A stretch of DNA of 64,000 bases from a virus (taxonomy: Duplodnaviria > Caudoviricetes), in IMG/VR virus record IMGVR_UViG_3300029288_000151, positions 10,666 through 74,665 of that record, one strand, 5' to 3'. Positions 9,985-27,572 of this stretch are shown here, one piece after another (position 1 is the first letter of the stretch; each line of letters starts with the position of its first letter). Made by a program: the position numbers and the translations under genes. The notes beneath the pieces were generated by a model, which saw only the letters and a list, made by a program, of their open reading frames with translations, did no database searches and was not told the origin of the DNA.

Positions 9985-12900
9985 TAGAGATTGCCTCCTA
10001 CGTTTGGATCCTGAGAGGCATTAAACCATCCGCCCGCAATGCTATCCAAAATATTCCAATTAATTGTAGCAAGGCTTTCTGAAATGTCTGTTCTGTCGTA
10101 CCCATCTTCAAAATCTTCACTCCATTGCACCCATTGACCCCAAAGATTAGCAAAAGAAGATGAGTATTTACTTGCTGCAGCAATACTTGTAAACGGTTTG
10201 CCCCCAAAATATAGAGGATTCATTGTAACCGGATTCCCTGTCTGGCTATGATGCATCAAGAAGAAAGCACCAATCATCATTCCCGCTTTTCCCATTGCGT
10301 TCATTGTAGAATTTTTACCATATAGAACAGTGTCTTTCATTTTGTCAAACAAGGAGACCTGTGTTGCTTTCTGCCTCGCGGCATCAGAAGAAGAGAGCCA
10401 TAACATTGATATAGTATTAAACATAGAATCAAACCACCCTTTGGTAGCCCAATCGTTAGAGTCAACAACCATGTCTGGAGTTATGATAGAGATAAACCCT
10501 TCTTCTTGATTAAAGATATGAATAACCTGTTCAACTTCTATTGGTCCATACATATCATTTACATTGTCCTGTAAACAGATTATGTCATAGGGCTTTATTG
10601 TCTCTTCGCCAATTAAGACAAGTTCTCCCTTATATGAGTCTTTTAACCCCTCAATCAAAAGACCCTGAGCATACCTTTTCGCCATCATCTCAGTAATACA
10701 AGATGGATATACCGCTTCATATTTTCTAATCATATGATCTGGAATATTATCATTTAGTTTCATCGTATAAGTTCCAGACTCTCCCATCTCCACCATTTCG
10801 GTATATTCCTTCGCCTCTCTTTCATTGCTAGTCTCATCTTTCACATCTTCGTCATTTGAATAACGGACTTCAACAGCATTAAAGGTATTCTGTACCGAAG
10901 TTCTTATCTCATTCTTAAGAATATGGTATTCAGAAGTTGCCATAAAATAATTTCTGAATGGTCGGTATCTACCAAAGATTCTGCCAAGGTAGAAACCTAA
11001 AGACCTATTATCTATGTTGTTCCCACTAGTTATAATAGCTTTATATAAATCTGGATTTATCTTACTAAGAGCTGCCAACTTTTGTTTGGTATTAGGATTG
11101 TTCATTATCTCTTTAAGATTTCCGGAAAGCTTACCATAAGAAGAAATCTGATCTGTCCAAAGAGTAGAAATTATTGATTCTTGTATTGTACAAGCTCGGC
11201 TCCAATAGTTTTGTCCTTTAGGGCCAAAGAACATCGTCATTCTTGGCGAGTGCCCGTATGGAACAGCAAGAGAAACATATCCGGGATGGCGTAACTCATG
11301 CTCTTTAAAAATTTCCCAAGGAGTAATCATTAAAGGGCGATAAGCACAGGCATTATTCCAGACCCGGTCTCCCGCACCAGAATAAACCGTATAAGGAGGA
11401 GGGAAAATATTATCATCCTGAGGCTGGTTTAAAAAGTTATTTTTCTTGAGCATAACATTCATACTCGCTTGCGCCCAAGAATCAAGAGGATTCAGACTAA
11501 GCAAATCAGTGCCATAACCACCAGTTAACTGACTTCTAACTTCTGCTGGATTATATGTTGGATTGAAATCTTGTCTACCAAAGTGCATAACAAATGGCTG
11601 TATGATTGCCGCAGACAAAGCTTGCATAGAAGAATAAAAGGTAACATCCTCTTCAAATGCCCCTACTGTGGACGCTTCAAGCTCTGCCCCGTATCCCTGA
11701 CATAAGATTTCAAGAATCTTCCCATCTTCATTTGGCTCAATCTCAACAATCTGACCAAGAAAAACCGTTTCTAAAACTTCACTATCATTAGCATAGCCGA
11801 GGCGAATTTGTACCTTTACCCCATCCTGCAAGATCATATTGGCAAAAGGATTCTCTCTGCTTGTCTCTGCAAAGAATCCAGTAGCGTCTTCTACTGCTTT
11901 TTCGTTAGCAAGTATCTGATCTTCTGTTTCTCCAAATCTTTTGCGTAATAAAATTCCAGCGACATTCGTCATTCTAATGATAGCAAGATCGGCAGCTACT
12001 TTTCTTGATCTAATAACTCTAATCTCTTGGATAGATGAGTAACTATAGAAGTCATCAAATGCTCTATAATTTTTAGTTCCCTGCTCACTGTCTTCGTCAA
12101 TGAAATAGATTCTAAATGTCGGATAGGCACGGCGCATAGAGATATCTTTCTTGCGCGAGCCGACAGAAAGTTCTGCGATAGAACGGGAAACAAGAGTGGC
12201 CGTATCAATCGTTGTGGCTGGAACAGAAGCAATTTTATTTAATGTTTGCTTTGTCTCTGCTATTTTTGATGTTATTTCTGCCGACGACGAAGACGCAATA
12301 ATTTGGTTGTTATTCTCAGAAGTCCCTTGTAAATCTGACCGATCAGACTCTGCCTCGGGAATATTCCGTTCTCCATTTAATCCACGATCGGTCTCTAAAC
12401 TATCTACATTCGGGCCGACAAGGAACTCTTTTGGAACTTCTACGACTCCGTCCTTTGTAACCGTACCATAGACAGAAGCCTTTATGTTCTCAATAGCCTG
12501 TTTCTTGTCTTGAACACTAAGCTGAGATCGGATTCCTTTATCAAGATAGTTTGTAAGATAAGGACTCATAAGAATTGTAGTATTTAAAAACCCATCAAAA
12601 GCCTGTTCTTCTAGCGTTCCTTGTTTTGCCGACAAGACAGAATACTTACTTAACAAATCAGAAGGAGAAAAAGTAACTGATTTCCCGAACATCCCTGCTG
12701 CAAACTGAACAGTATCGTACATAAAACTATTTACTTGCTGCGCTCGAAGAGCAAACCCTAAATTTATCGTTGCTCCAAGATTATTAAAGACACTGTATTC
12801 TCCACCAGAAAGCCAATTAGAAAAACCATATTCAATTCCAAATTGTTCATTCATATTTATTTTTGTTTCTCTAATTTTTGTCGCATTCACAGAAGCATAA

Positions 12901-15900
12901 GTTCCACCAAATAGAGAGTTATATATATAATTATCTATAGAAGCAGCTTCTTTCATTACGTGGATCTTTACATTGGCTTCTAGATTCTTTGGATCATTAT
13001 ATCCAGCAATCGTTGCGTCTTCCAGAGAATCGTCATAGACATAGAACTCTGGTGTTAATGGAACATCAAGGCCAGGCATATCTGGCAGATATAGATCCAT
13101 ATAACACTCGCTCATCTGACCATGGACAACACTCATCAAATACTTATAAACATCCTCTCCAAAATAGGACTTAAAGGAAGCGGAATCTCTTCCGGCATAA
13201 GCCATTGCCCTATCGGCAAGTTGACCAAGCTTGGTTAAAAGTTTTCTATATCTCTGAGAAGCTTCTCGGCTAGAAGCGTCATAGTTTCTATAGATCTCAA
13301 AACCTCGAACCTTCCCTTTGCCGACAATCTCTACTCCTGTTCCTCCAATCAGATTAATCGCTTCTTGCCCCAGCTCTTTGGCGATCTTTTGTTCCCATGT
13401 AGCAGCCTCGCCTTTAACTTTGACTGGCGTATTCATCAAAGGAAATCCTTTAGAAATTTCCTTTACCTCTCTCGCTAGATCATTAGCAATTGATGACAAC
13501 CAATCGGGGCACTTGGGATCTTTTAACTTAACAGAATGCAGATCACTTGCCGTTCTCAGTTGAGAGTAGAACATCATTGACAACATCTTGTCCTGCATCT
13601 CTTTCGTCGCTTTATCGGCTATAGCAGGATTCAACCAGTCTGTCGCAGTAGAAGCCGTAATCCCAATTAAAGTAGATGCTTTAGAAAGAGCAGTCGAATA
13701 ATGATCTGCTGTTCTTACTAGATTTATATTGCCAGTGAGCACATTAAAGATCTGCTCTCCAGAAGAACCAATAGGATGTGCATCTAGATATTTTCTTATC
13801 GCCTCGTTTTCATCTGCTTTTAATAGAGACAATAACCGTTTCCCGATCGCCATCTTGATCTTCCAGTCAATAGCGCCACGCTGATCAAGCTGTTCTTTCC
13901 GGATATCCTGCGCGACGAACTCAACAACGAAGTCGTATAAGTCTACTGACCCTTCTGTTGATTGTTCAGAAGTTTCGGAAATCACAATATTTTTTATCTT
14001 CGCCAAAGAGAAGATATTATTAATACTTGATGGTTGTTCGTTGTTCTGCCAACCAACCTGGATAGAACCAGAACCAAGGATATTGCTAAACGTTCTTGAG
14101 ATGGCTTGTGTCTCTTCAACCATCCTCTTAAGATTCCGAATAGCAATACGTCCTTCTTCTCCGCCAGCTCTAAAGACAAGAGTTCCTGCTCTATTGCCAG
14201 CACCCAAGAATTGCCAAGCACAGCGGTCTTGACCAATAAGCTTCATCTTGGCAAGACGATGACCAAAAGTAATTGTGGCGGCAGCAAGAGCAATATTGGG
14301 CATTGAATGGCTAGTATCCCCGCCAACGATAAGAGGATCTGGCACTTGCCAGAATACGTTTCTAACAGAAGGGTCTTCGGTATAAAGCTCCCACCCAGCA
14401 GCTCTCTGATTAGTTATCCACTCTGTCCGTTTCTCTACACTCCTTGTGTCCTTCTCCCTTCTTTGCTCTTCCTTTTCTATCTCTTGCTGAGCTTTGAAAT
14501 CGTCAACAGTCTCTTCCTGTAAGTCTACTTGCTCGTCAGCCGTTTCTGTCATTGCAGAATCAGCTAATTCTTCTGAGCGAGAAGGAGCTGGTTTTGGCTG
14601 AACAGATTCTGCATTGATAGTAACGTCACTATCACAGATTGCCCCATCGTTAGAGGAGAGGATCCTCACTCCGGGAGAGAGAACTGTTTTTGCTCCATGC
14701 GCGGATAAGTATAAGTTACCATAATAAATAACAGGAGGAACTCGTTTAGAGTATTCCTTGTCTATATCCTTATTCGCCAAAGTTAGTCCCGGTTCCGCAA
14801 AATCAGTATAACCTATGACGCTTGTAGTATATTCAGAACCTTTGTACCCTTTTGCAGTCTTATTTAATAACCTTACTTTCGCCGTTGGCATTGGGATTAA
14901 ACCAGCAGCAAACCGATTGACAACGTTTCGAACAGACGGGGGAAAATCGTTCCAGGTAGATTCTTGTGTCTTTTTCTTGTTCTTATCTCCATCAGACCAC
15001 GCAGAAGGATCTTTCTTCTTCCAGGCAGTACGGTTGAGAGGTTCTGAATAAGCCACCAAGAAGCGTCCAAACCTTGAGCCTCCAACACACATAAACCTTT
15101 GGAACATCGCCCAAAGCATCCAAGCATATTCGCTTGTTCTTCTACTCGCTTTACTTTCTGTCCATGACCGTGTTTCTCCAGCACAAAGACGTGCCATCAT
15201 AAATCGATCATAATCGGTTATCCAATAAGAAGGATGAGTCCCTCCTGTAAAACGACCTTGTTTTAAAGTTCCACCGGCACTAGCAGTAGTCGAAAAATCC
15301 TGTGAAGCATATTTTTCTGCAGCAGTAGGAGCTTCTGCCCCAGGAGTCTGACCAGAACCAGAAGTCTTATTTCTCGCATCGAAGAACGGAGGAATGGCCT
15401 TAAAACTTGTATCCGAACGGAAGAAGTCTTTCGCACTTCCAGCTCCAGCATAAGCCTCTGGAGATGTTGGGTTTATATACTTGAATCTGACCCAAGAGAA
15501 AGAGAGGAAGTCATCATTGTGTTCCCCACAGAGAGGCATCAGGCTTTCTAGATGGTCGGCGTAGTACATCCAAGTTTGAGAATACATTGGATATACTACC
15601 GGCGTATTTATGCCATTAATTACTGAATCTAGTTGCGCTGCACTGGCCGCCTTAGCGAAAATACTTGCCGAGTAATCCTGAGTCTCATAAGTATTAAAAC
15701 CTGTTGCTTTTACCGTGGACTCGTCATTGTCTTTAACATCTTCTTCCCCAGCCGTTGGCTCTTCTACTGGCACTGGTAATTTGGCGTTATACCAAAAATG
15801 CTTTGAGAATGGGGCATAGTTAAAAGACGCTAACTGTAGATCAAGATATACCGTACCGGGCTGATCTGCGCTTACGCGCATAGCTCCAGTATAGAGGACA

Positions 15901-16328
15901 AAGATCATATTAGCATCAGATGACGGACAAAGAGATTCTCTGACTTTATTGTTTTCTATAAATACAAAAGGGTGATGGATAAGCTCTGCTATAAGTCTAC
16001 GAAGGACAACGGTCTGTTCTGATCCTTCCTTGAACGCCAAAGTAAAATTAACGAATCCTACCTCTTGCCCTTTCGCTTCTACAACAGGAGAAGATGTTCT
16101 GAGCGTCTCTGCAACGAACACATCTGAAACATTATTGATTTTAATTGATGTGGCCGGGACACTATCAAAAACTATGTCGTTGATTACAAGGAAATCTGAC
16201 GGCAGCTTCCTAACGGATTCACGCGCCGAATATTCGACTTCTTCTCCTGAGTTCTTAAACGCAATGATCTTCTCAATCTCTGCGTTTTGAACTGCTCTTT
16301 GCTGGTAATCGTTTGTAGTCTTGGCCAT
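9984..16328 (-). CDS. Large baseplate hub protein with an internal cell-wall-hydrolase-like segment
   Basis: 2114 aa upstream of the spike. The C-terminal part has hub-like patterns (QDGVKVQIRLGY, VFLGQIVEI, LIGEETIKPYD). Internal DRFMMARLCAGET resembles SleB/Hydrolase_2. Confidence 0.65.
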   Translation of the reverse strand: MAKTTNDYQQRAVQNAEIEKIIAFKNSGEEVEYSARESVRKLPSDFLVINDIVFDSVPATSIKINNVSDVFVAETLRTSSPVVEAKGQEVGFVNFTLAFKEGSEQTVVLRRLIAELIHHPFVFIENNKVRESLCPSSDANMIFVLYTGAMRVSADQPGTVYLDLQLASFNYAPFSKHFWYNAKLPVPVEEPTAGEEDVKDNDESTVKATGFNTYETQDYSASIFAKAASAAQLDSVINGINTPVVYPMYSQTWMYYADHLESLMPLCGEHNDDFLSFSWVRFKYINPTSPEAYAGAGSAKDFFRSDTSFKAIPPFFDARNKTSGSGQTPGAEAPTAAEKYASQDFSTTASAGGTLKQGRFTGGTHPSYWITDYDRFMMARLCAGETRSWTESKASRRTSEYAWMLWAMFQRFMCVGGSRFGRFLVAYSEPLNRTAWKKKDPSAWSDGDKNKKKTQESTWNDFPPSVRNVVNRFAAGLIPMPTAKVRLLNKTAKGYKGSEYTTSVIGYTDFAEPGLTLANKDIDKEYSKRVPPVIYYGNLYLSAHGAKTVLSPGVRILSSNDGAICDSDVTINAESVQPKPAPSRSEELADSAMTETADEQVDLQEETVDDFKAQQEIEKEEQRREKDTRSVEKRTEWITNQRAAGWELYTEDPSVRNVFWQVPDPLIVGGDTSHSMPNIALAAATITFGHRLAKMKLIGQDRCAWQFLGAGNRAGTLVFRAGGEEGRIAIRNLKRMVEETQAISRTFSNILGSGSIQVGWQNNEQPSSINNIFSLAKIKNIVISETSEQSTEGSVDLYDFVVEFVAQDIRKEQLDQRGAIDWKIKMAIGKRLLSLLKADENEAIRKYLDAHPIGSSGEQIFNVLTGNINLVRTADHYSTALSKASTLIGITASTATDWLNPAIADKATKEMQDKMLSMMFYSQLRTASDLHSVKLKDPKCPDWLSSIANDLAREVKEISKGFPLMNTPVKVKGEAATWEQKIAKELGQEAINLIGGTGVEIVGKGKVRGFEIYRNYDASSREASQRYRKLLTKLGQLADRAMAYAGRDSASFKSYFGEDVYKYLMSVVHGQMSECYMDLYLPDMPGLDVPLTPEFYVYDDSLEDATIAGYNDPKNLEANVKIHVMKEAASIDNYIYNSLFGGTYASVNATKIRETKINMNEQFGIEYGFSNWLSGGEYSVFNNLGATINLGFALRAQQVNSFMYDTVQFAAGMFGKSVTFSPSDLLSKYSVLSAKQGTLEEQAFDGFLNTTILMSPYLTNYLDKGIRSQLSVQDKKQAIENIKASVYGTVTKDGVVEVPKEFLVGPNVDSLETDRGLNGERNIPEAESDRSDLQGTSENNNQIIASSSSAEITSKIAETKQTLNKIASVPATTIDTATLVSRSIAELSVGSRKKDISMRRAYPTFRIYFIDEDSEQGTKNYRAFDDFYSYSSIQEIRVIRSRKVAADLAIIRMTNVAGILLRKRFGETEDQILANEKAVEDATGFFAETSRENPFANMILQDGVKVQIRLGYANDSEVLETVFLGQIVEIEPNEDGKILEILCQGYGAELEASTVGAFEEDVTFYSSMQALSAAIIQPFVMHFGRQDFNPTYNPAEVRSQLTGGYGTDLLSLNPLDSWAQASMNVMLKKNNFLNQPQDDNIFPPPYTVYSGAGDRVWNNACAYRPLMITPWEIFKEHELRHPGYVSLAVPYGHSPRMTMFFGPKGQNYWSRACTIQESIISTLWTDQISSYGKLSGNLKEIMNNPNTKQKLAALSKINPDLYKAIITSGNNIDNRSLGFYLGRIFGRYRPFRNYFMATSEYHILKNEIRTSVQNTFNAVEVRYSNDEDVKDETSNEREAKEYTEMVEMGESGTYTMKLNDNIPDHMIRKYEAVYPSCITEMMAKRYAQGLLIEGLKDSYKGELVLIGEETIKPYDIICLQDNVNDMYGPIEVEQVIHIFNQEEGFISIITPDMVVDSNDWATKGWFDSMFNTISMLWLSSSDAARQKATQVSLFDKMKDTVLYGKNSTMNAMGKAGMMIGAFFLMHHSQTGNPVTMNPLYFGGKPFTSIAAASKYSSSFANLWGQWVQWSEDFEDGYDRTDISESLATINWNILDSIAGGWFNASQDPNVGGNL

Positions 16329-16330
16329 AA

Positions 16331-19300
16331 TTACATCTGTTCGTGAATTTTGTTAGCGAGCATACGAGGATCCATAGCCGAACGATTATCGTTAACATGC
16401 ATCCGAGCATTAACACTAGAAGAATTCATAGAAGAAGCATACCTCATTGCCCCATTATAATCCTTATCCAAATCACGAGAGTCATAACTGCCAGTCATTC
16501 TTGAAGAAGGGAGAGAATAGGTTCTAGGACTTCGTTGTATCCTGGCCTTTGGAATCGACATTCCCGGTCCAGAGGGAGGCATGGAATTCATCATGTCCAC
16601 ATTATGGCCACCAGCAGGGCCTTCCTTGTTTGGATTTTTAAGAGAACCAGAGACAGCTGGCGCAGACATCATTATAGCAGCCCCAGCTAAAGCCCCCAAA
16701 ACCAAAGGCTTTTTAGCTCGGGACATAACCGAAGCTACTTGTGAGGCTTTATTGGTTAATCCTTTTATCCTTCTAGAAGCCATAGATAAGATGTTTCCTT
16801 CTCCTTCCTCAATACCACGAACCATTCTTTGTCCTACGTCAAGACTCAGTCCTTCCCTAGAGAAAGCAAGATGTTCAGCCATCCTTTCCCTGGTCAGCTG
16901 GCGGCTTCCTTTGCTAGCGGCGGCAAGCTCATGTGACAACTCAACTTCTCTCTGAGACGCACGCAATGCCTCAACAGAAGTTCTGGCTGCTTTAGTAGGA
17001 CTGTAATCTAAAGAATAGGACTTCCCCTTTAGCTCAGTAGATAGCTCTCTGCCTTCTCCAAAGACATCTCTAAAAACACCAGCAAGGGCATCTTCGTCTG
17101 CCGTCTCAACCGCCGCGCCAAGACGCTTATAAAGGTCTGCCCCAGCAACCATACCGTGCTTGGCATTGATACTGGCCCTTTCTTCTATGTGCCAGAACAT
17201 AGCAGCAAGCTCGTTATAGTGCTCTGGTTTATTAGCGGAAACTGCTAACTTCATCTTTTGTAATGCAATATTCGTTTCTCCAGCAGCCATCTTCCCATAG
17301 GCAGCAGTCCGAGCTTCTGCCTGTTCAGCAGCCAATCCTCGGAGAGTAGCGCCTGGAACTTCTTTCTCTTTGATTGCCCGATCAAGCATATAATGGTTAG
17401 CTAAATACTTATTATAGTTCTCCTGTATCTCATTAGTAGTAAGCCGACTTACCCTACTCTCTAAATCTTTATTCTTAATGAAGGAGGCAGTAAGCATATC
17501 TTTGTCATAGTCAGCCTTCATCCCCACGTCTTGAGAAAGGTCAGTCAATACATCGCCAACCATTCCCATCTCTCGCGGAGTATAGATCATATAATCCTTG
17601 GCTTCTCTCATCATTCGGAAACGAGAAGCCTGAATGCTTTCTGGCGATACATGAGGATGTCTACCAAGCATTCCTCCAATATCTTCTCCAGCGACAAACC
17701 TTTCTCTCATGGCTCGAAGGCCTTCTTGGTCTGCGGCAGAAGATCTCTCAATAAGCTCGTCAAACATTTCTTCGCCAGTTCTACGAGAGATTCCAGCTGC
17801 TCCTCCCATCCTCTCTGTCATCTCTTGGGACATCCTCTCCGCCGTAAGCTGTCGGGTCCCATAAACACGAGAGGATGCACTACTAAGATTGGCGTATTCA
17901 CGGAAACCAACATCTCTTAGATTCTTTGCTGCCGCCTCTATACTTTCTGTCTCTCCTCCTGCAGCCGCCTGTAACTCTCCGAAAGCCTTGGACAATTCAG
18001 ACTGGAATACTTCTCCCTTGGCAGAGACAGGAAGCATAGCCGACATTTCAGACATACCAGGTCGATATATTCTAGAGGCTCCTCCGAAGGCCTCGACTCC
18101 TTTCCCTAAATCAAGCCACTGGCCAGCCTCTCCTACTGGCCCGGCCTTATTAATAGCAACAGCTTCTGGACCCAAGAGTGCTTCCAGTTTACCTGGCCCC
18201 ATGCCAACAAGAGACTCCTGCATCCTTTGGGCTGCCAGAAGACCCTTTGGTTTCTCAAACCTGGTAACGATATCGGCGGCTAAATCTGAACCAAGTGTTG
18301 CGTCTCCTGCATAACTTTTCTGTGCCAACAAACGGATGCCTGCTGGGTCCATCTTCATACGTCCACCGGCACCTCCTTCCATCGGGAGGTCACCAAGGAA
18401 CATACTTTCAAGGCCATAGACACCTTTTGATCCAGAGATCATTTTTGTCTCAGCCTCAGATAACAATCCTTCTTCTGCCATCCTGGCTAATTGTGCCTGG
18501 GGGATCATGCCAAAGATAGAAGGAGCATGCTCTTCTCCCATAAGACCAAGTATCCTTGCCCCGCCAACAATCCTCTTCTGCAAAATGTATTGAAGTTCTT
18601 CTGTAGAAACCTGGCCAGCAGAAGCAGCTGCCTCGTTAAGACCAAGATAGTTGACTTGGTTCGATAAGAATCCTCTTGCCGCCGGAGAAGCTTTTCTCCA
18701 AACATCTGCTTTATTAATATCAAAATTATCTAGTCCCTCTGCCGCGAACAAAGACATTGCTGACATCTGCTGTGCAAACAAAGCATACGGTGTTTTTGCT
18801 AGCCGCTCGGCGCTCATAAAAGCATTAACTGTGTTCCCGCCAATTGCTGTCTTGGCCCCCGCCGCCACTGCACCAATCATCTCATTGATTACTCTTTGAT
18901 CTTGTGCCTTCATCATGTTCTTGGTGGCATCGCCAAACATCTTACCAATCATGCCTTCTTGCATGCGGTATTTCTCTCGCAGGTAAACGGCGACAACATC
19001 TTTCTTTACCGGACGAGCACCAATTATTTCCTGCGTTATCCCCTCTACCCCTCCACCACGAACGGCTCTACCTTCTGCACCAATACCAATCATCTGACCT
19101 TGATTAAGAGGGACAGGAGAAGATAATTTTATTGATTGTCCAATTTGAAGACCATTGCGATTTGCTTCGATTACTTCTTGGACAGCCTGGTTTATATCAA
19201 GTCCCGGCGCATAACGGATCTGCTTTGACACAACACGCTCAAACTCCATTGTTCCAGAAACTTTTGTAGAAATTAGTCCCATCTCTTTGGCAAGCGCTTC

Positions 19301-20800
19301 TCTTGCTGCCGCAGACTCGAAACCTCCGGCTCCTGGTTTCGCATAGAAGGTTAGTAATTGAGGAGCGACATGGGCTTCGCGACCAGAAAAAGATAAAGCT
19401 TTCTGTGTTTCGTTTGATGCCCAATCACCAAGTTCTGTCTCTATCCCCATTAGCCGATTGTATTCTGGCCCAACGAAAGGTCTTTCTAACCGATGCATGT
19501 ATTTCCCTAAAGAGCCAGAAAACCTAAATCGATCGCCAGAAGCAAGAGCTTTCGCTTCTGCAGAAAGGCCCCACTCTTCTCTAAGGAATCTCAATGGCAT
19601 TTGGCTGGTTGGGAACATCTCTCCAAGAGCATTTCCATAAAGCATCCGACGAACATCTTGTCGGTACAGAGTTCCAGAACCAATCGCTCCTTGGCTTGTC
19701 CCACCAAACAACCCAGAAGCCAACGCCTCGTCTAAGACATCAGGAGTCATATTCTTTCCAGAATACACAGACTGAAGAGGGATTAGCTTCCTCTTGGCAA
19801 GTCCACCAGAAGTCAGGAACTCTTCTGGGTGTTGCCAAATTGCTAATCTTTTCCCAGCTTCATTCGCATTCAGATTATCTATTAGTCGTGCATTGGTATT
19901 GATAACAGCATGTTTCGCCGAACGGGCTTTGTCTTTCTCGGCACGGAGAGCAGACAAGTAAGACTCAGCATATCCTATCGCCTCTAACCCTTTCGTGCTC
20001 CCTCTGGAGAGGTCATAGCCTTTGCGCAAAACATATCGCTGTTCAAAGTTTTTACCTAGTGGCAAGATATCTGTTTCGCCCAATGGCAAGTCTATCCTTG
20101 CAGAAGAACCCTTAACGTTAGTCCTCATCATTCTAACGCCACCAACAGAGACAAGAGACGACTTGCCGATACTCTTCTCTCCAAGGATCTCTTTTAAAGA
20201 GGCCTGAATCTTTTCGTAAGCTGCTCTCTCTCCGCTACTTAAACTTCTAAGATCCACTCTGTCTGGCCGGGACGGGAGGATTGCCTGAGAAATTATTGTG
20301 GCTCCAAACTCCTTATTGTAAACATTGCCTCTTGTTATCTTCTCTATCTCTTTCTCAAACAGATTCGCGTTCCCACCATAAGCTCCAATTGTTTTAGCTG
20401 CTTGTCCATATGCTTCTAATGGAGTACTAGAGTTAGCCAAAATTCCCTGAAAGGCAGCATAGGCTTGTTTGTGGGCCGTCGGTTTATTCCCGGCCATTAT
20501 GGATTCGTATGCCGCACGAGCGATGTCGTGCTTCATCTCTCCATGATTAGCAGAACCAGTAATCATATTCCCAAAGTATTCTAACGGGCGGATCTCCGAA
20601 GTAACTGCTGGCTCTACAAGGGAACCTAACTCTCTTACTCTTTTCGCCGCTGAAGTATAATCATAGAGTGGTCTTTTAACCGCAGTTGCAAGATCCTGCC
20701 AGTGGTTGCGCATGCCAATACCGAACCCTATTATTGGCGCGGCAGCAGCACTAGCACCCCATAGACTTGATCTTTCTTCTATATCTTGGTAGGTCGCCAA
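16331..20800 (-). CDS. Candidate single-chain two-barrel (DPBB) RNA polymerase-like virion protein
   Basis: Ordered motifs: VAVYLREKYRMQEGMIGKMFGDATK (beta-like; K620, K627), DLPMEGGAGGRMKM (beta switch-like), MLGRHPHVSPESIQA (R1047), ADYDKD (aa 1096-1101, DxDxD), GETN, INAKHG. C-terminal hydrophobic helix; TTG start. Confidence 0.7.
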   Translation of the reverse strand: MATYQDIEERSSLWGASAAAAPIIGFGIGMRNHWQDLATAVKRPLYDYTSAAKRVRELGSLVEPAVTSEIRPLEYFGNMITGSANHGEMKHDIARAAYESIMAGNKPTAHKQAYAAFQGILANSSTPLEAYGQAAKTIGAYGGNANLFEKEIEKITRGNVYNKEFGATIISQAILPSRPDRVDLRSLSSGERAAYEKIQASLKEILGEKSIGKSSLVSVGGVRMMRTNVKGSSARIDLPLGETDILPLGKNFEQRYVLRKGYDLSRGSTKGLEAIGYAESYLSALRAEKDKARSAKHAVINTNARLIDNLNANEAGKRLAIWQHPEEFLTSGGLAKRKLIPLQSVYSGKNMTPDVLDEALASGLFGGTSQGAIGSGTLYRQDVRRMLYGNALGEMFPTSQMPLRFLREEWGLSAEAKALASGDRFRFSGSLGKYMHRLERPFVGPEYNRLMGIETELGDWASNETQKALSFSGREAHVAPQLLTFYAKPGAGGFESAAAREALAKEMGLISTKVSGTMEFERVVSKQIRYAPGLDINQAVQEVIEANRNGLQIGQSIKLSSPVPLNQGQMIGIGAEGRAVRGGGVEGITQEIIGARPVKKDVVAVYLREKYRMQEGMIGKMFGDATKNMMKAQDQRVINEMIGAVAAGAKTAIGGNTVNAFMSAERLAKTPYALFAQQMSAMSLFAAEGLDNFDINKADVWRKASPAARGFLSNQVNYLGLNEAAASAGQVSTEELQYILQKRIVGGARILGLMGEEHAPSIFGMIPQAQLARMAEEGLLSEAETKMISGSKGVYGLESMFLGDLPMEGGAGGRMKMDPAGIRLLAQKSYAGDATLGSDLAADIVTRFEKPKGLLAAQRMQESLVGMGPGKLEALLGPEAVAINKAGPVGEAGQWLDLGKGVEAFGGASRIYRPGMSEMSAMLPVSAKGEVFQSELSKAFGELQAAAGGETESIEAAAKNLRDVGFREYANLSSASSRVYGTRQLTAERMSQEMTERMGGAAGISRRTGEEMFDELIERSSAADQEGLRAMRERFVAGEDIGGMLGRHPHVSPESIQASRFRMMREAKDYMIYTPREMGMVGDVLTDLSQDVGMKADYDKDMLTASFIKNKDLESRVSRLTTNEIQENYNKYLANHYMLDRAIKEKEVPGATLRGLAAEQAEARTAAYGKMAAGETNIALQKMKLAVSANKPEHYNELAAMFWHIEERASINAKHGMVAGADLYKRLGAAVETADEDALAGVFRDVFGEGRELSTELKGKSYSLDYSPTKAARTSVEALRASQREVELSHELAAASKGSRQLTRERMAEHLAFSREGLSLDVGQRMVRGIEEGEGNILSMASRRIKGLTNKASQVASVMSRAKKPLVLGALAGAAIMMSAPAVSGSLKNPNKEGPAGGHNVDMMNSMPPSGPGMSIPKARIQRSPRTYSLPSSRMTGSYDSRDLDKDYNGAMRYASSMNSSSVNARMHVNDNRSAMDPRMLANKIHEQM

Positions 20801-20801
20801 A

Positions 20802-23800
20802 TTAATTTCCTAATACCTGATATGATTGATCAACAAGACCTTGTCTTCTATCGTTTATAACAATATCCAATCTGCTTCCAATATTAGCATTTATCTTACT
20901 ATTCCGGATAGTTCCTCGATCGCTAGATCGAATAAATCTACCGAAAGCATACAGATTGTTAAGAGACTGTCCTTCGTCAACCATAGATTGTTTTAGATTG
21001 TCTGCACTTTCAAGCCGCGAAACAACGTCAGAATTTATATACGGCTTCCTGGACAGCGACTGCATCCTATCTTGCCAGAGATCGAAATCATGATTGTCCG
21101 AATTATGGACAACACCACAAATTGTTGTATAGAAATGAGGCTCCCCCATGTCAAAATCATACAGAATAGGATCATTAATAATAATTTTCTTTTTGTTAAC
21201 ACCGAACCAAAAATACTTTTCAAGTTCATCAGAGATAGCACAAGTTTCTAAATAATCTTGTTGTCTTACTTCTTTGCATAACAAGAAAGCAATCTTTGCA
21301 ATATGATCCCCAATATTAATTCTAAATGCAGGACTTGTGCTCTTATAAGAAGAGGATGGCCTCACTTTTATAAATTGGAGCCGAGATCGTATCCCTAAAC
21401 TGTTTAGCAGATTCCACCCCTGTCTACCAAGTGTCTCTGAACTAGTTTGGATAGATATGTTTTTAGGCAGAGATAAACATTTCCTCTTATCAACAAAACC
21501 ATCACCAAAGAACCAAGATCTTAAAAAATATAAGATTGTCTCTTTGGGTAGTTTAAAAAAGTCTTCTGTTAATGTCTTGGTTGTCGCTTTGTCTCCTGTA
21601 CAAAATAATTTAACAACAGAAGCTGCAATAGCACTATGCACCCTCACAAGAAGCGCATCGGCTCCATTTGGATCGGGAGAAATTGTTGTGTTCGCATTAA
21701 ACATTCTTTTTGCATATCTAGAAATTTCTTCAGCCTCTTCTGTTTCTTTTGAGGACAAACTAAAAATAACTGTTTTAAGACGTCCTCCTTTTGTTTTTGC
21801 ACAATACCCTTCTGCAACATACCATCCTAGAAAACTTCCGAAAGAGGCATCTAGTTTAAGCATCCTCTGATGTTTTTTGCCTTTAATCCCATAGGAGAAG
21901 ATCTCCTCGTCATATTTTACTGCATTACTTTTTACTAATGGCAATAAATCAATTTCTTCTTTTGACTCTTCGAAAAACAGTTTAGGATAAATCATTTTGT
22001 CTCTTGGTCTAATCTTGTCTACTGGTATTTTAATTAATCTATATTCTTTTAAATACTGTCGAACGATAGGAACGATATGATTTCCTGTGATGACAATGGA
22101 AGCATCAAACATCCCTGAATTTTTCAACTTGTATGTATTGTTGTCGTTCTTGTGCATAAAAATTTCTTTAACTCCGGTGAGATACCCGTCCGAATTTATT
22201 AACTTTTCCCCAGCACGAATATCTTTCGCAAATCTAACAACGCCCACTCCAGATAATATTTTAGAGTCTCCAGAAATACAACCTTCCATCTGTAAATACT
22301 TAGCTTCTATGTCTTTCAAATCGACTGATGGTGACCAGGCTACCCACGAAGGATCGGGAAGCGAACGAGTAGCGAAATACTCTTTAAGCTTCTTCTGTCT
22401 TAGCCAATCGGCAAAAGACATCTTGCCGCCAGTTTCGCTAAGCCATTGTTCTTCCTGCTCTTTGTCGTAACTTAGTCCTTCAGACTTTCTGCCTCTTATG
22501 ATCTCTGAGATCATCTGGACGTCTTCGTTCGTAGCTCTCTGAGCATCTATCTTAGCTCTAATCGCAGCAGCCTTTTCTGTTATCCATCGGGAGGCGTAGA
22601 TCCTTTGCTCGTCGCGCGGGACAAGAGAAAGAATTTGAGCCCGCTCTTCCTCTGTCTTTGCATCAGAGAAAGCCGAATAGAAATCTCTTTCGTTCCGGGG
22701 GAGAGCCCTCATTGCATTTGTTGGATTAGCAAACGGATCTACCCCGAACAGAGTTTGATCCATTTGGCGCTCATAGGCGCCTGCCTCTTTATATCTTCCC
22801 TCTTCCATAGCCTCATCGCGAAGCTTTTGGGATTTCACATATTGAAGTATGTCAAAATATTCTTGGACAGATCTCTTCTTCTGTATATATTCAGGGATCT
22901 CCTCGTCACCAAGACCAGCCTCTGTCATCTCCTTTGCTGGCAGCAAGAAGTTCTCAATCGGTCGATCCCAGAAAGCGGAACCTGTTCCAATGGCTTCTTC
23001 TGCGACGTAGGTCTCAATAGCAGAACGTTTTCTAATAAGTTTTGCCGCAGGACTAATAGGAGTTAAATACTCAAGCGGCGTTTCCACTGCTCTAGACGCC
23101 CATTCCCATGCCGCACCAGCAGCGCGCTCTCTCGACTCGTAGCGCAACTGTTCAAATTCATCTTTAAGTTCCGTACTTTCGGCGATCCCTTCTTCTGCGA
23201 AAAGACTTCCTAAGTCCCGATCTCCTATCATGGGAACGCCACGAATAGTGCCGCCTACTCCCATGTTCCACATCCGAGATTCCATGGTCGGAACAGCCAA
23301 ATCTATTTTCCTACCTTGGAGAATCTCTCTTGCTTGTTCTTCAGACTTAGAAGAAAGCATAGCCCCTATGCCTTCTGCGTTTATTACCGCCCGCCCGAAC
23401 TCTTCTGTCGTAAATTTACTTGGAGAGATTACGTCCTTAACGGTGACAGGGATTGTCTCTAATAGGTCTTCGTCAAAGCGGTACTCATCAAACTCACGTC
23501 GCGTCTTCCTCTGCCGAACCTGTTCCCTGATTGTCTGGATCATCATCTGTTGATTTTCAGGCAAGGAATCACGGCTCGCCATGGCCCTCTTTAAAGTAGA
23601 GTCGTATTCGGGACTCCAGGGAGCAATATCAGCGAGGATCTTTAAGCGATAAGCAAGAGGATAATCTTCTGGATCTAAACCTTCGACTTCAGGATTTAAC
23701 GCCGCGAACCCCGAGCCCGGCATCCGGATCTCTGCTTCTGAAATATCAGCGAAAGGATTACCTTTTCTTACGTCAATAAAATAATCTCTTGGCAGCCAGG

Positions 23801-26800
23801 AAGCCATCTCTGCTTCAAGAGGATTATATTCGTCAAGATATGATCTGGTATGAGGAATAAATCTTCTCACGGGCTCCGACATCGTAGCAGCCCCGCCGAG
23901 ATTAAGATGCTTCCAAAGCCAATATTCTCCTCCAGTTTCCTTCCCCATCGTACCAACGGTCTGAAGGTTCTGGAACAATTCCTCTCTGCCGGTAATACCT
24001 TTCTGTAATACGCTCGAAGCATAACCCATCAAACCAACCGCTTCTCTGCGTCTATACAGAAGCTCGTTGAATAATTGAGTTCCTTCTTCGGGCAATACAG
24101 GAGCGCCGGGACCTAGCCCTCCTAAGGAGTAATCTGGCTCTGTCTCTGCTGGTCTTGGGCCAGGATGATGGACATACTCTCCATTACCCAACATCCACTC
24201 ATCCGGACGTACGAACTTTCTTGGTTTGAGAAGTCTCCCCGCTGTGGCTGCGATAAGCGGCCCAACAAAGGGAACGTCCTCTCCCCAAGTCCCTGTGAGC
24301 GGCGAGGGACGATCATATTGATGAGTCATTTCGTAGTGATACTTCCAGTCATCACTGCCGAACAAAGCTTTTAACGGATGTAAAAGCGGATCGTATTCCC
24401 AGCGTTCGCTTTCCTCTCCATAGATACCTTTCTGATAGGCTCTGGTCCTTAGTCTCTCAAGCGAGTGCTTCCTGTAGTACTCAATAGATGAATTATGGAG
24501 GGTTATCCCTGTAGAAAGGAAACTATTGCCTTCCTCGACTTGTATGTCCCAAACTTCTCCTTCGTAATGTATTATTTCTATCTTATCAATCTTTAACAAC
24601 CATCCGTTCGATATCTTTATTTTCCTAACACTCGAATAGTTAGCCTCGTGCTTCCCTGGTTTTGGATCTTTCATTAGGGAATACAATCGTTCTGCATCAA
24701 ATCCAGAAATTGTAAGCTCATATGCCCTGTGTATCTTTTCCCCATTTGGAACAGCAGCAACAAGCCTACTGTTAGAACTAGATCCTATTCCTTTAGAGGC
24801 CATCAACATTTGAATCTGTTTAAGCAACACCGGAGTAGAAAGACCGATATTGCAACTACAGGCATATGGCTTTGGAGAACCGTCTCCATTAACAAAAGCC
24901 TCTAAAAAACCATTAATAAATTCTTCTGACGCATTGAGAAGGATAGGATTTAATTGTTTGTCCCCTTTCCTTGCTGTTCCAGGACATAAGGAAGACAAGA
25001 TGTGTTTTAATACTGTACTATAACTATCAATAATAATTCCGTTAGAATCTCCTTGAGGATCAATCCTATATGTGCAATTAAATTTATTTAATAACCTAAA
25101 AATATCATTGTGATATTTTGTCTCATTTTTGTGAAAAGAAAATGAGACTGTGCCATTATCTTTGTCAATATTTCCTTCTGCCGCGTAATACCCAATAAGG
25201 CTTCCAAAATCATAATCTAACTCTATCTCTTCTGGCCAAGTATCAATCAATCTATACCCTGCAAATACCGCAGTTCTTGTCTTCTTCCTTAGGTCGCTCA
25301 ATCTATTTCTAATATACTTTACAGAAACACTGAATTGGCGAATAATTTCGTTCTGTCTCTCTCTTCTGACAACACTTCTCCGCGGCAACATTCCCCATTC
25401 GACAATTTGGTCATCAAGTATTTGTTGGTCATCTTTGGCCAAGGCGCAATTATTTGCTTTCACATAAACATTTCCTCTATAAATTTTATATCCATCTTTC
25501 GGCAAACAATCTATAACCTTTATTGTTACAATGGATTTACTAAAAGCCAACTCTGGGATAAAAAGACAATGATTCGTTGTTAGTTCACTAGCAGGAATCC
25601 AATTTAGCCGAATAGACTTCTCTTCTCCCTGATTATATTCTGACAAGTCATAAGCTAAAACCTCATGATTCGCAGTGACTTTTGTTGTGTCTGTTCTGTC
25701 CCAAGGAGAATAAATCTTAAAAACTTCTTCGCTTACCCTCCTGCTAGCAATATTCAAAACAGTAGTCCGTTTCCCTTTATAATTAATTACTTGATCTCCA
25801 ATTTGAATTTTACAAATTGGTTTGATTGTCCCATCTGCCATTAATATGGTTGAATCACTCGTCAAGCAACCTTCATACTTGCTTGATCTTCCCGCTTCCC
25901 ACCAGCGTCCTTTCCTGATAGCAACATCTTTCTCGCCAGAATAAACAGCTTCTAGCTCTTCCGGGTTTTCTTTGGAACCTAATAGATTAAGTCCCGGAAT
26001 TGCTGCCATAAAATTACCAGACAGGAGAGACAGGCCACTAGATAATGCTGTCCAGGCAGCAAGTCCGCCAATCGCACCGGCAAGAGTTGGGCTCTTTACC
26101 CCGGCCAAAGCTTTCCCAATAAATGGGATATCTTTTACGCGACGTCCAACTTTGCTGGCCCAAGAGGAAGCAAAAGACTCTTCTCTACTAACACGGAGAG
26201 AGTTAAAGATCTCATTGAATGCCTTACCTTTGTTGGTATATTTTTCTTTAGCCGCCGCATATAGCAAACCACCATATCTTCCAGTGCCAGCCATCAGTCC
26301 GCCAACGCCAGCAAAACCTAAAGCAGATTGCCACGAAACAAGACCAGGAGTTACCTGATCCTGCCGCCGGAGAGATTCGCCCAGACCTATCTTCTCAGAG
26401 ATAGAAGCCCTAGTGACGTCAACGTCCGCTAGCGTCCTTCCTATCCCATAGAAGAAACCCTGATCGAACTTAGGAGCAAGCGAAGAATAAAGACCAAGAG
26501 CAGCACCAGCCACAAGCCCTTTCCTTGAGAAAGGTACAGACTTGGTCGCTCTAAAAGCAACTCCTCCAATAGCAGCCCCAAGTCCAGTCCCTACGAGAGG
26601 AGCTAACGGAGAACCTGAAGATCTTAAATAATCATAATATTCAAGCCCTTTCCATGCGCCGCCAAGGAGAAGACCCTTCTTGATATACCGGCCGATCATC
26701 TGGCTCGAAGTGCCAGGCTCGATACCAATCTTGTTGAGGATAGGAATCCTGGAGAGAGCATTCCCAAGAACAGGGATTTCGAAAGGCTTGCTTAAAAGAT

Positions 26801-27572
26801 TGTTTAACCGACCAACAGTACTTGCCGCCCTTGCCCTGAAGAAATTGGCAACAAGTTCCATCTGGGCAAATAACTTCTGGGTGCTTTCTTTAAGACTTAC
26901 CCTTGCACCAAGAATATTTAACTCAGGACGTAATTTCGTTATAAGTGGAATCCTTGGTTCTTTCTGAGCCAAAGGATCCCAATTCCTATAAGGAAGCCCT
27001 TTCTTGAATTCTTCAAATGGGATATCAGGTGCTATACGGGCCCAGGATGCCCTCAGAGCCCCTTCTTTAAGAGAGACATTGCTCCCTAGCTCCATCCCTT
27101 GAACTCGGGCGTAGTAGTCCGCTATGGCCGCTCCACGCTGTGTTCCAGAAGCAACTTGCATAGAGTAGCCGACAAGATTACCAGATTGGTCTCTTACCTG
27201 GCCAAGAATAGACCCCGTTCTGTAGATATTCGCTCTAGTTACTTCGGGACCAAGAGCATTCCGCAGATATTCACTGAAGACATTGTTGCCCTTGAGGAGA
27301 TCACTTGTAAGCTCTACCCGTCTCCAGGACTCTAATGGGGATAGGGTTTCAGACAGGCGGAAGGTCTTGAAGATTGCTCCGGGAGTCGCTTCTTCAAACG
27401 AACGGATCCCCTGGATATAATGATCCCAAAGCCTCTTCTGGCCGATTGGGACAAAACCACTCGCTGCGAATGCCGCTGTGGCGGCGCCAACACCAAGAAG
27501 ATTAGACGGGTCCTCTCCTGGGATTACAGGCTGTGTGCCGGTTGCCGTAATTGGGGGTTGCTGTATTGGCAA
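20802..27572 (-). CDS. Tape-measure-like/ejection protein precursor with two inteins (about 1404 aa after splicing)
   Basis: Follows the tail chaperones; Gly/Ala-rich hydrophobic helices in the N-terminal third; two Hint insertions; TTG start. Confidence 0.75.
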   Translation of the reverse strand: MPIQQPPITATGTQPVIPGEDPSNLLGVGAATAAFAASGFVPIGQKRLWDHYIQGIRSFEEATPGAIFKTFRLSETLSPLESWRRVELTSDLLKGNNVFSEYLRNALGPEVTRANIYRTGSILGQVRDQSGNLVGYSMQVASGTQRGAAIADYYARVQGMELGSNVSLKEGALRASWARIAPDIPFEEFKKGLPYRNWDPLAQKEPRIPLITKLRPELNILGARVSLKESTQKLFAQMELVANFFRARAASTVGRLNNLLSKPFEIPVLGNALSRIPILNKIGIEPGTSSQMIGRYIKKGLLLGGAWKGLEYYDYLRSSGSPLAPLVGTGLGAAIGGVAFRATKSVPFSRKGLVAGAALGLYSSLAPKFDQGFFYGIGRTLADVDVTRASISEKIGLGESLRRQDQVTPGLVSWQSALGFAGVGGLMAGTGRYGGLLYAAAKEKYTNKGKAFNEIFNSLRVSREESFASSWASKVGRRVKDIPFIGKALAGVKSPTLAGAIGGLAAWTALSSGLSLLSGNFMAAIPGLNLLGSKENPEELEAVYSGEKDVAIRKGRWWEAGRSSKYEGCLTSDSTILMADGTIKPICKIQIGDQVINYKGKRTTVLNIASRRVSEEVFKIYSPWDRTDTTKVTANHEVLAYDLSEYNQGEEKSIRLNWIPASELTTNHCLFIPELAFSKSIVTIKVIDCLPKDGYKIYRGNVYVKANNCALAKDDQQILDDQIVEWGMLPRRSVVRRERQNEIIRQFSVSVKYIRNRLSDLRKKTRTAVFAGYRLIDTWPEEIELDYDFGSLIGYYAAEGNIDKDNGTVSFSFHKNETKYHNDIFRLLNKFNCTYRIDPQGDSNGIIIDSYSTVLKHILSSLCPGTARKGDKQLNPILLNASEEFINGFLEAFVNGDGSPKPYACSCNIGLSTPVLLKQIQMLMASKGIGSSSNSRLVAAVPNGEKIHRAYELTISGFDAERLYSLMKDPKPGKHEANYSSVRKIKISNGWLLKIDKIEIIHYEGEVWDIQVEEGNSFLSTGITLHNSSIEYYRKHSLERLRTRAYQKGIYGEESERWEYDPLLHPLKALFGSDDWKYHYEMTHQYDRPSPLTGTWGEDVPFVGPLIAATAGRLLKPRKFVRPDEWMLGNGEYVHHPGPRPAETEPDYSLGGLGPGAPVLPEEGTQLFNELLYRRREAVGLMGYASSVLQKGITGREELFQNLQTVGTMGKETGGEYWLWKHLNLGGAATMSEPVRRFIPHTRSYLDEYNPLEAEMASWLPRDYFIDVRKGNPFADISEAEIRMPGSGFAALNPEVEGLDPEDYPLAYRLKILADIAPWSPEYDSTLKRAMASRDSLPENQQMMIQTIREQVRQRKTRREFDEYRFDEDLLETIPVTVKDVISPSKFTTEEFGRAVINAEGIGAMLSSKSEEQAREILQGRKIDLAVPTMESRMWNMGVGGTIRGVPMIGDRDLGSLFAEEGIAESTELKDEFEQLRYESRERAAGAAWEWASRAVETPLEYLTPISPAAKLIRKRSAIETYVAEEAIGTGSAFWDRPIENFLLPAKEMTEAGLGDEEIPEYIQKKRSVQEYFDILQYVKSQKLRDEAMEEGRYKEAGAYERQMDQTLFGVDPFANPTNAMRALPRNERDFYSAFSDAKTEEERAQILSLVPRDEQRIYASRWITEKAAAIRAKIDAQRATNEDVQMISEIIRGRKSEGLSYDKEQEEQWLSETGGKMSFADWLRQKKLKEYFATRSLPDPSWVAWSPSVDLKDIEAKYLQMEGCISGDSKILSGVGVVRFAKDIRAGEKLINSDGYLTGVKEIFMHKNDNNTYKLKNSGMFDASIVITGNHIVPIVRQYLKEYRLIKIPVDKIRPRDKMIYPKLFFEESKEEIDLLPLVKSNAVKYDEEIFSYGIKGKKHQRMLKLDASFGSFLGWYVAEGYCAKTKGGRLKTVIFSLSSKETEEAEEISRYAKRMFNANTTISPDPNGADALLVRVHSAIAASVVKLFCTGDKATTKTLTEDFFKLPKETILYFLRSWFFGDGFVDKRKCLSLPKNISIQTSSETLGRQGWNLLNSLGIRSRLQFIKVRPSSSYKSTSPAFRINIGDHIAKIAFLLCKEVRQQDYLETCAISDELEKYFWFGVNKKKIIINDPILYDFDMGEPHFYTTICGVVHNSDNHDFDLWQDRMQSLSRKPYINSDVVSRLESADNLKQSMVDEGQSLNNLYAFGRFIRSSDRGTIRNSKINANIGSRLDIVINDRRQGLVDQSYQVLGN
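21102..22280 (-). mobile_element. Intein (393 aa) with LAGLIDADG homing endonuclease, in the tape-measure-like gene
   Basis: MEG|CISGDSKIL ... ITGNH ... FLGWYVAEG ... SWFFGDG ... GVVHN|SDN; AT-rich relative to flanks. Confidence 0.95.
24492..25868 (-). mobile_element. Intein (459 aa) with LAGLIDADG homing endonuclease, in the tape-measure-like gene
   Basis: YEG|CLTSDSTILMADG ... VTANH ... LIGYYAAEG ... EAFVNGDG ... ITLHN|SSI. Confidence 0.95.

Follow-up and report, generated by a model that had tools for sequence, protein, structure and literature searches.

Two-barrel polymerases are marked by a triad of aspartates, an R-x-P block ahead of that triad, and a basic pair in the other barrel (PMC7824862). 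Virion-borne RNA polymerases (RNAPs) of this type are known from phiKZ-type jumbo phages (PMC7824862) and from Thermus phage P23-45 (PMC10770324). In P23-45, the virion RNAP gp96 is fused to the tape measure protein (PDB 8H2M/8H2N), and in the published model (Chaban et al.), the first genes are transcribed at the entry pore (PMC10770324). The polymerase P74-26 gp62/P23-45 gp64 (PDB 8F5M) is a non-virion enzyme, and its gene lies elsewhere than in the tail module (PMC10770324). Here, we analyzed a 64,000-nucleotide stretch of tailed-phage DNA (the window), taken from IMG/VR record IMGVR_UViG_3300029288_000151 (74,665 bases; completeness, ~39%), and in it a 1489-residue open reading frame (ORF) at 16331..20800 on the minus strand, which lies within the long minus-strand structural module of the window. 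From the 74.7-kb record rated 39% complete, the genome is estimated at ~190 kb.

Structure prediction and conservation indicate that the product of this ORF almost certainly folds as a single-chain two-barrel polymerase whose active site is intact, and the protein is likely an active DNA-dependent RNAP. The gene context leads us to lean toward a polymerase that is carried in the virion and used for early transcription, and the argument as a whole, from two-barrel polymerase to the virion step, appears fairly probable. The protein belongs to a large sequence-orphan family of ~94 clusters, whose gene stands by itself in the tape-measure slot of jumbo-size phages with contractile tails; a literature search found no description of this polymerase family.

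Conserved residues and predicted fold

An earlier interpretation of this DNA, made from its letters alone (the sequence-only reading), had proposed from seven motifs that the ORF encodes a divergent fusion of the RNAP subunits β and β′, and had taken its position, a TTG start, and a C-terminal hydrophobic segment as hints that the protein is packaged and ejected with the DNA. The ORF, its start, and the segment were found as it had described them, the motifs lie at the residues and coordinates that it had given, and the Escherichia coli strings that it had quoted are present in rpoB (1050, 1257) and rpoC (424, 458). The motifs are as follows:

Residues 505-514, minus strand: motif 1, KEMGLISTKV
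Residues 603-630, minus strand: motif 2, VAVYLREKYRMQEGMIGKMFGDATKNMM, which contains K620 and K627
Residues 804-825, minus strand: motif 3, DLPMEGGAGGRMKMDPAGIRLL
Residues 1044-1058, minus strand: motif 4, MLGRHPHVSPESIQA, which contains R1047
Residues 1096-1103, minus strand: motif 5, ADYDKDML (ADYDKD at 17498..17515)
Residues 1174-1177, minus strand: motif 6, GETN
Residues 1211-1216, minus strand: motif 7, INAKHG

When the 1489-residue protein was shuffled, DxDxD appeared in 6% of the shuffles and [RK]xP..DxDxD in 2%. Motifs of a single sequence are therefore only suggestive, and it is conservation that gives them weight. When 70 full-length family members, whose identity to the query is roughly 15-36%, were aligned, the columns G572, K620, P914, R1047, P1049, D1097, D1099, D1101, and E1206 proved invariant, and K627, S1055, G1093, and K1214 were conserved in at least 90% of the members. 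As read from this alignment, the invariant residues K620, R1047, P1049, D1097, D1099, and D1101 are exactly those that define two-barrel polymerases. The conservation of DxDxD and of the lysines among homologues, which the sequence-only reading had named as a check on its proposal, is borne out, with the Asp triad and K620 kept in 70/70 members and Lys or Arg at position 627 in 70/70. The four conserved blocks are these:

18920..18943, minus strand: lysine pair K620...K627, family consensus KxFxxxK; K620 is Lys in 70/70, K627 is Lys in 67 and Arg in 3
17630..17662, minus strand (residues 1047-1057): R-H-P-x-x-x-x-x-S-x-Q block, putative counterpart of β′ NRAPTLHRLGIQA; R1047 and P1049 in 70/70, S1055 in 67/70, Q1057 in 55/70
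17498..17512, minus strand: predicted catalytic loop D1097-Y-D1099-K-D1101; all three Asp in 70/70, positions 2 and 4 variable
17156..17185, minus strand: E1206...I1211..K1214-H1215 block; E1206 in 70/70, I1211 in 65/70, K1214 in 69/70, H1215 in 61/70

R1047-H-P1049 is located 50 residues ahead of D1097, within the 20-100 residues by which an [RK]xP block precedes the Asp triad in the filter of Supplementary Data 4 of PMC10770324. The spacing of R1, P3, S/G9, and Q11 in this block equals that of RpoC 425-435 (R425-A-P...G-I-Q-A) by inspection; the profile alignment program hhalign put RHP on a nearby EHP of RpoC instead, and the R1047-R425 mapping is one made by inspection only. The sequence-only reading had taken the Lys that replaces the usual Gly of DxDGD as a possible sign of inactivity. 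This idea was rejected, as position 4 of the loop is variable in the family (A21, G17, R9, K6, and others) and the potential catalytic motif of the AR9 non-virion RNAP is listed as DDDKD in Supplementary Data 4 of PMC10770324. The loop is also kept in 13/13 related loci that were fetched, as DFDKD in 8, DFDRD in 3, DFDND in 1, and DYDLD in 1. The E1206-H1215 block falls in long helices past barrel A (model residues 675-735) and may have a bridge-helix or trigger-loop role.

An AlphaFold2 model of residues 481-1290, built from 79 aligned sequences, is a compact globular α/β structure with a mean predicted local distance difference test score (pLDDT) of 91.2 and a predicted template modeling score (pTM) of 0.89. 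Two double-psi beta-barrels (DPBBs) are recognized in the model. The following parts were delimited by the structural and profile comparisons described below:

18368..19360, minus strand (residues 481-811): predicted β/Rpb2-like module with the lysine-bearing barrel (DPBB-B); pLDDT 90 in a model of residues 481-870
16931..18202, minus strand (residues 867-1290): predicted β′/Rpb1-like module, from Foldseek and VIA-align matches
17426..17863, minus strand (about residues 980-1125): predicted double-psi beta-barrel A with the metal-binding loop, from alignments of free-standing DPBBs
17762..17875, minus strand: β′-like blocks RGKxxGSRxLT (residues 976-986) and GISxxxAxxMF (residues 1003-1013), aligned by hhalign to RpoC GRFRQNLLGKRVDYSGRSV and GLPKKMALELF

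In a Foldseek search against the PDB, 109 matches had E values of ≤1e-3 (best, 2.8e-5), and the 50 listed were all largest RNAP subunits, among them bacterial β′, archaeal RpoA, Pol I, and the AR9 non-virion enzyme (7s00_d). Alignment of the Foldseek candidates with VIA-align gave Z scores of 10.7-11.5 with 300-350 aligned residues, covering model residues 387-810 (residues 867-1290 of the protein). Neither crAss gp66 (6VR4) nor archaeal PolD was among the 50 matches listed in any of the PDB searches, which is no evidence that their folds differ. In a search of 48,161 representative chains that was independent of Foldseek, the first 12 places were all occupied by two-barrel polymerases. QDE-1 (7y7p_A) matched the whole model with a Z score of 10.6 (333 aligned; root mean square deviation [rmsd], 4.4), as did maize RDR2 (Z, 10.0), while P74-26 gp62 (8f5m_A) matched both barrels with a Z score of 10.4 (289 aligned; rmsd, 4.2) and P23-45 gp96 (8h2n_A) extended across both barrels with a Z score of 8.0 (283 aligned). 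Indirectly, the pTM of 0.89 and the alignments of QDE-1 and gp62 over both barrels would be in keeping with a lysine pair and an Asp triad that face one cleft. Free-standing DPBBs (CDC48-N, VAT-N, and the designed 7dww and 7dvc) could be placed onto model residues of about 500-645 with Z scores of 7-8.6 and rmsd values of 2.0-2.5.

When residues 481-870 were modeled alone, the nine best of the 48,161 chains were all second-largest RNAP subunits, matched over 159-235 residues of the barrel region. These were vaccinia virus Rpo132 (6rfl_B; Z, 8.6; 233 aligned) and the subunits of African swine fever virus (Z, 8.3), AR9 (7s00_C; Z, 7.7), phiKZ (7ogp_C; Z, 7.5; 235 aligned), and Xanthomonas (β; Z, 6.6; 234 aligned), together with chains of Pol IV, plastid PEP, Pol I, and Pol III. 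The β/Rpb2 barrel region aligned to model residues 1-330, which places barrel B there; a helical insert fills model residues of about 190-310 in this half, and the K620/K627 pair sits on a beta-hairpin formed by model strands 138-142 and 147-153. The assignment of the β-like half is firm because nine consistent top matches coincide with an invariant lysine hairpin. Collectively, the fold, the conservation of the motifs, and the order of the modules, β-like first and β′-like second, all fit a single-chain two-barrel polymerase and support the divergent β-β′ fusion that had been proposed.

Sequence comparisons alone gave a sparser picture. When 1.84 billion representatives were searched exhaustively with HMMER, 94 cluster representatives were recovered, nearly all of 1430-1570 residues; a word-index protein search returned a single homologue only. 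No match to the 1489-residue protein was found in Pfam or PHROGs, and Pfam searches with 12 members up to an E value of 5 gave only scattered chance matches and no family, PF05183 included. Searches of the PDB chain sequences with phmmer and with the family hidden Markov model (HMM) found no polymerase, the HMM giving nothing at E values of ≤10, 8H2M/8H2N included. There was no tblastn match of the query and two distant members to 50,697 deposited phage records and no relative in one scan of a species-level set of 185,579 prokaryote genomes. With E. coli RpoC, hhalign aligned the family profile over 189 columns (probability, 38%; E value, 3.4e-4), pairing three β′ blocks in order, the third of which sets the GDxDxD loop of the family onto NADFDGD of RpoC; the same comparison with E. 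coli RpoB, 0305phi8-36 gp145, and Ma-LMM01 ORF64 gave nothing. The ESM Atlas holds no model of the 1489-residue protein, and its language-model neighbors, at scores of 0.88-0.90, are automatically named tape measure proteins, which we treat as leads only.

Tail operon and relatives

PHROG matches to a tail sheath, a tube-like protein, and a baseplate wedge bracket three giant ORFs, of which the polymerase gene is the middle one. The tail module is colinear with that of Bacillus phage 0305phi8-36, in the order of sheath, tube paralogues, the gp143/gp144 chaperonins, gp145, gp146, and the hub gp147:

28261..28836, minus strand: gp143-like tail chaperonin (blastp to gp143, 3.6e-9; to ME3_33, 3.8e-19)
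27586..28254, minus strand: gp144-like tail chaperonin (blastp to gp144, 4.3e-4)
20802..27572, minus strand: upstream giant of 2256 residues, a gp145 homologue with two inteins (blastp to gp145, 4e-16 to 1e-4)
16331..20800, minus strand: 1489-residue ORF in the slot of gp146 ("hypothetical tape measure protein"), by position only
9984..16328, minus strand: downstream giant of 2114 residues, a baseplate hub with a cell-wall-degrading domain (phrog_20474, 8.8e-44)

The polymerase gene is the second past the gp143/gp144 homologues and stands directly ahead of the hub, whose product has tblastn and blastp matches to the hubs of 0305phi8-36 (gp147), ME3, and KLEB27-3. The sequence-only reading had placed the ORF between tape measure and hub; the hub neighbor held up, whereas the supposed tape measure upstream is the gp145 homologue and the ORF itself occupies the gp146 slot. 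According to their annotations, gp145 and gp146 of 0305phi8-36 were both identified in virions by mass spectrometry. The name tape measure was given to gp146 mainly from the tail length, and its authors saw conservation among tape-measure homologues in the last 60 residues only (PMC2147016). The operon is codirectional and tightly packed. In all 13 of the related loci that were fetched, which were located with an alignment of 12 close members, the order of sheath, chaperonins, gp145-like gene, polymerase gene, hub, and wedge is kept together with the motif set, and five related virus records each contain one copy of the gene per genome. PHROG searches with gp145, ME3_35, ME3_36, KLEB27-3 gp034, and an intein-free orthologue of the upstream giant gave nothing.

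The TTG start of the polymerase gene lies 1 nucleotide after the stop codon of the upstream giant, with AGGA ~8 nucleotides upstream of it; each of the two neighboring giants has an ORF of its own in another frame. Among the 12 closest members, M1, S11, and W14 are invariant, and because homologues conserve residues from position 1 on, the start is supported. Outside the modeled core, the protein has these features:

19361..20800, minus strand (residues 1-480): N-terminal region, conserved across the family in the conservation profile
20711..20761, minus strand (residues 14-30): Gly/Ala-rich hydrophobic stretch, read from the sequence; W14 invariant and G25 nearly so in the 12 closest members
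16649..16705, minus strand (residues 1366-1384): C-terminal hydrophobic, transmembrane-like segment; Kyte-Doolittle value of 1.84 over 19 residues, G1369 nearly invariant in the family
16334..16417, minus strand: C-terminal tail motif (..NARMHVNDNR..LANKIHEQM), conserved in 13/13 related loci

The polymerase core is trailed by only ~200 residues. A hydrophobic stretch comparable to that at residues 14-30, which may have a membrane role, is present at residues 25-43 of the upstream giant. An alignment of the last ~50 residues of the family with the last 60 of gp146 by hhalign had an E value of 1e-3 and a probability of 20%. The ending N.N[IM]..[DN][DN]R is common to the upstream giant (20805-20900), gp145, gp146, KLEB27-3 gp033/gp034, and ME3 gp36, and may serve these proteins as a common signal to dock into tail or hub at assembly.

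Two cultured phages encode candidate remote relatives. In Acinetobacter phage vB_AbaM_ME3, ME3_36 (KU935715.1, 33172-37983) is a protein of 1603 residues annotated "hypothetical protein," whose gene occupies the same slot, flanked by those of the gp145 homologue and the hub. The protein contains KFFSVGSK, REPAQGTMSSQ, and GGDHDQD, and hhalign pairs the K620/K627 region with KFFSVGSK. It was too distant for detection by tblastn; its predicted structure matches the model of residues 481-1290 with a Foldseek E value of 9e-8, and ME3_36 probably belongs to this class as a distant member. For 224 jumbo phages surveyed in 2021, in a text that names ME3, polymerases were reported for none but the phiKZ-like phages and two more (PMC7824862), and the supplements of PMC10770324 make no mention of ME3, Acinetobacter, Microcystis, or 0305phi8-36. 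In Bacillus phage vB_BauM_KLEB27-3, gp034 (OM634661.1, 35003-42307; 2434 residues; "structural protein") is encoded directly upstream of the hub and carries NRYPTINQSTIQA followed by KADYDGD at residue 1933, with an hhalign probability of 9%. To judge from these motifs, it may consist of a long N-terminal extension and then a polymerase, the reverse of the order in P23-45 gp96.

Matches in a library of viral structure models extend this picture. The nearest models were an unnamed protein (E value, 1.8e-12) and one from an uncultured siphovirus that is labeled "Minor tail protein" (2.3e-9), followed by ME3 A0A172Q021 (9.2e-8) and a protein of MaMV-DC (3.8e-6), with crAss-like giant proteins at 5e-4 to 1e-3 (cr118_1, 4.8e-4). 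The MaMV-DC protein is assumed from its size to be orthologous to ORF64 of Microcystis phage Ma-LMM01 (AB231700.1; locus 43811-48832), a hypothetical protein of 1673 residues with QRTPMG... and with EGDADGDQ at residue 1348. Ma-LMM01 ORF64 may be another unrecognized two-barrel polymerase, one outside the tail module.

Several further observations were made in and around the module. The inteins of the upstream giant lie at about residues 569-1029 and 1766-2158, as judged against an intein-free orthologue of 1401 residues and in agreement with Pfam Hint and LAGLIDADG matches. Internal matches to families typical of inteins or homing endonucleases, namely HNH endonuclease and PHROGs of the thymidylate synthase/ribonucleotide reductase type, occur in the portal (46259-49558, minus strand; 1099 residues) and in the next large ORF at 42855-46241 (minus strand; 1128 residues), and from its sequence, the phage seems unusually rich in inteins in its structural genes. 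A 385-residue ORF (37091..38248) that matches tail-fiber and collagen-like PHROGs contains, at 37793-38179, three tandem 129-nucleotide units, for which the identities to the reference copy are 100%, 88%, and 62%. The DNA of the window is carried by landfill and groundwater metagenome runs; no RNA run is listed among the sequencing runs that carry it, which says nothing either way on expression.

Proposed virion delivery and alternative functions

A complete relative with terminal repeats (IMGVR_UViG_3300035137_000026; 197,730 bp) was searched for other polymerases, together with three further related records. None of the four contained PF00623 (RNA_pol_Rpb1_2), which was found in all 14 control genomes, or PF04542 (sigma-70 region 2); the T7-type family PF00940 was likewise absent from them, a weak blank, as the control was also blank everywhere. 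When all ORFs of the complete relative were scanned for [RK]xP..DxDxD, only the polymerase gene was convincing. No 8-mer was common to at least six of its intergenic regions. The strongest shared motif found there, itself weak, was CTAGTTA/TAACTAG, which is ~10-fold enriched in the intergenic DNA and occurs in five to six regions.

Use in the virion is suggested by the gene context because a polymerase that is expressed only with late structural genes makes sense mainly for the next infection. In the mechanism that we propose, the gene would be expressed late, together with the tail genes, and the protein would be built into the particle, most likely with tail or tape-measure assembly and by way of the C-terminal motif. 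At infection, it would leave the virion, the hydrophobic segments would hold it at the inner membrane, and there it would transcribe the first phage genes from the incoming DNA without the host RNAP, in line with the model of Chaban et al. for P23-45 gp96. Several points weigh against this proposal. A tail tube is a few nanometers wide, and a folded enzyme of ~160 kDa (estimated from length) cannot pass; the enzyme would need either to be unfolded for the passage or to be located at another site. The links to polymerases at the level of sequence are weak (38% hhalign probability with RpoC, none with RpoB or PDB sequences), the Z scores of 6.6-8.6 for the β half are in a range where chance matches occur, the window has no promoter-like repeat and no informative repeats, and the record covers only ~39% of a genome. 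A more elaborate version of virion delivery appears somewhat unlikely. According to it, the polymerase took over the tape-measure slot, is threaded unfolded as cargo of the contractile tail, and refolds at the inner membrane, where the two hydrophobic segments would anchor it beside the DNA entry channel. As the sole RNAP, it would there initiate gene expression and also help to pull in the ~190-kb genome by transcription, in a device common to a supergroup of large myoviruses related to 0305phi8-36 that includes ME3 and KLEB27-3.

The same enzyme might instead be an active RNAP that is not packaged but made in the infected cell for middle and late genes, its place in the tail operon being incidental. 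Such a function is suggested by P23-45 gp64/P74-26 gp62, a non-virion enzyme that is among the best single-chain matches (Z, 10.4), and by the complete relative, in which the sole recognizable polymerase might serve all phases. However, in 13/13 loci the gene is fixed in one late operon between the homologue of a virion protein and the hub, the protein has hydrophobic segments and a C-terminal motif in common with virion proteins of 0305phi8-36, and an enzyme that appears only when the late structural genes are expressed could not be the one to initiate the transcription program. We therefore consider an unpackaged enzyme unlikely.

Far less probable is a structural role in the tail, as tape measure or as scaffold of the tail lumen, with a polymerase fold that has been exapted and is noncatalytic. 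The annotation of the slot in 0305phi8-36 as "hypothetical tape measure protein," the automatic naming of the language-model neighbors, and the resemblance of the last 60 residues to the end of gp146 would all be in keeping with such a role. A scaffold would not be expected to hold every catalytic residue invariant at roughly 15-36% identity, and the core is compact α/β (pTM, 0.89) without an extended helix, with only about 200 residues beyond it. Equally improbable is a two-barrel enzyme with another main job, be it RNA-dependent polymerization as in QDE-1 or DNA synthesis like that of a primase or PolD. The fold alone does not determine template or product, and QDE-1 and the plant RDR2 are among the best matches to the whole model (Z, 10.0-10.6); yet the two halves match β and β′ over about 230 plus 300-350 residues versus a total of 333 for QDE-1, and archaeal PolD is absent from the 50 matches listed, which is weak evidence. 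A double-stranded DNA phage also offers no obvious RNA template. We thus favor a DNA-dependent RNAP delivered with the virion.

Comparison with known systems

If a DNA-dependent RNAP is indeed delivered in this way, phages would repeatedly have come to bring in a polymerase of cellular type with the tail, which would then be no oddity of Thermus phages, and the automatic labels of tape measure or minor tail protein for such genes would be wrong. The cultured phages ME3 and KLEB27-3 would offer laboratory handles. The likeness to P23-45 gp96 lies in a single-chain two-barrel polymerase that is encoded in the tail module at the position of the tape measure. In P23-45, however, the polymerase is followed by ~3800 residues of tape measure in a chain of 5002 residues, whereas here it is a separate gene of 1489 residues; P23-45 is a siphovirus, while the tail of the present phage is contractile and its genome is estimated at ~190 kb. 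The two proteins have no sequence similarity, as judged by the family HMM against the PDB sequences, and no second, non-virion paralogue was found in the relatives here. P74-26 gp62, with 592 residues in the chain, is much smaller than the 1489-residue protein.

The crAss-like phages are said to be the third known case of a virion two-barrel polymerase, and phi14:2 gp66 (6VR4), by its published description, is reportedly a virion-packaged single-chain enzyme within a giant protein of the structural module. It differs in belonging to a podovirus-type virion and in its chain of >2000 residues, in a comparison made by description and by matches in the viral library. Proteins in the same slot of other phages differ more: 0305phi8-36 gp146 (2537 residues) has a related C-terminal ending, but it is without DxDxD and has no detectable similarity beyond its last 50 residues. 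With tape measure proteins, the protein shares the position of its gene, past the tail chaperones and ahead of the hub; those proteins are mostly extended and α-helical, whereas residues 481-1290 here are predicted to be compact α/β.

With the QDE-1/RDR/YonO-type enzymes (PF05183), the protein has in common a single chain in which the lysine barrel precedes the Asp barrel. Nevertheless, the match of the β half to QDE-1 is limited to the barrel itself (Z, 5.3; 80 aligned), compared with 212-235 residues for Rpb2/β, and the PF05183 profile characteristic of the YonO/QDE-1 family was not recovered (12 members, E values up to 5). Each half instead matches its own subunit of the multisubunit AR9 and phiKZ enzymes (7s00_C and 7ogp_C for β, 7s00_d for β′), and the DDDKD of AR9 has Lys at the same loop position as DYDKD; the difference is that here the polymerase is one polypeptide, without PF00623 detection. 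In the model-based comparisons, the halves are thus β- and β′-like over more residues, while QDE-1 and gp62 are the best single-chain matches to the whole model, a mixed likeness that should be useful for relating single-chain and multisubunit polymerases to each other.

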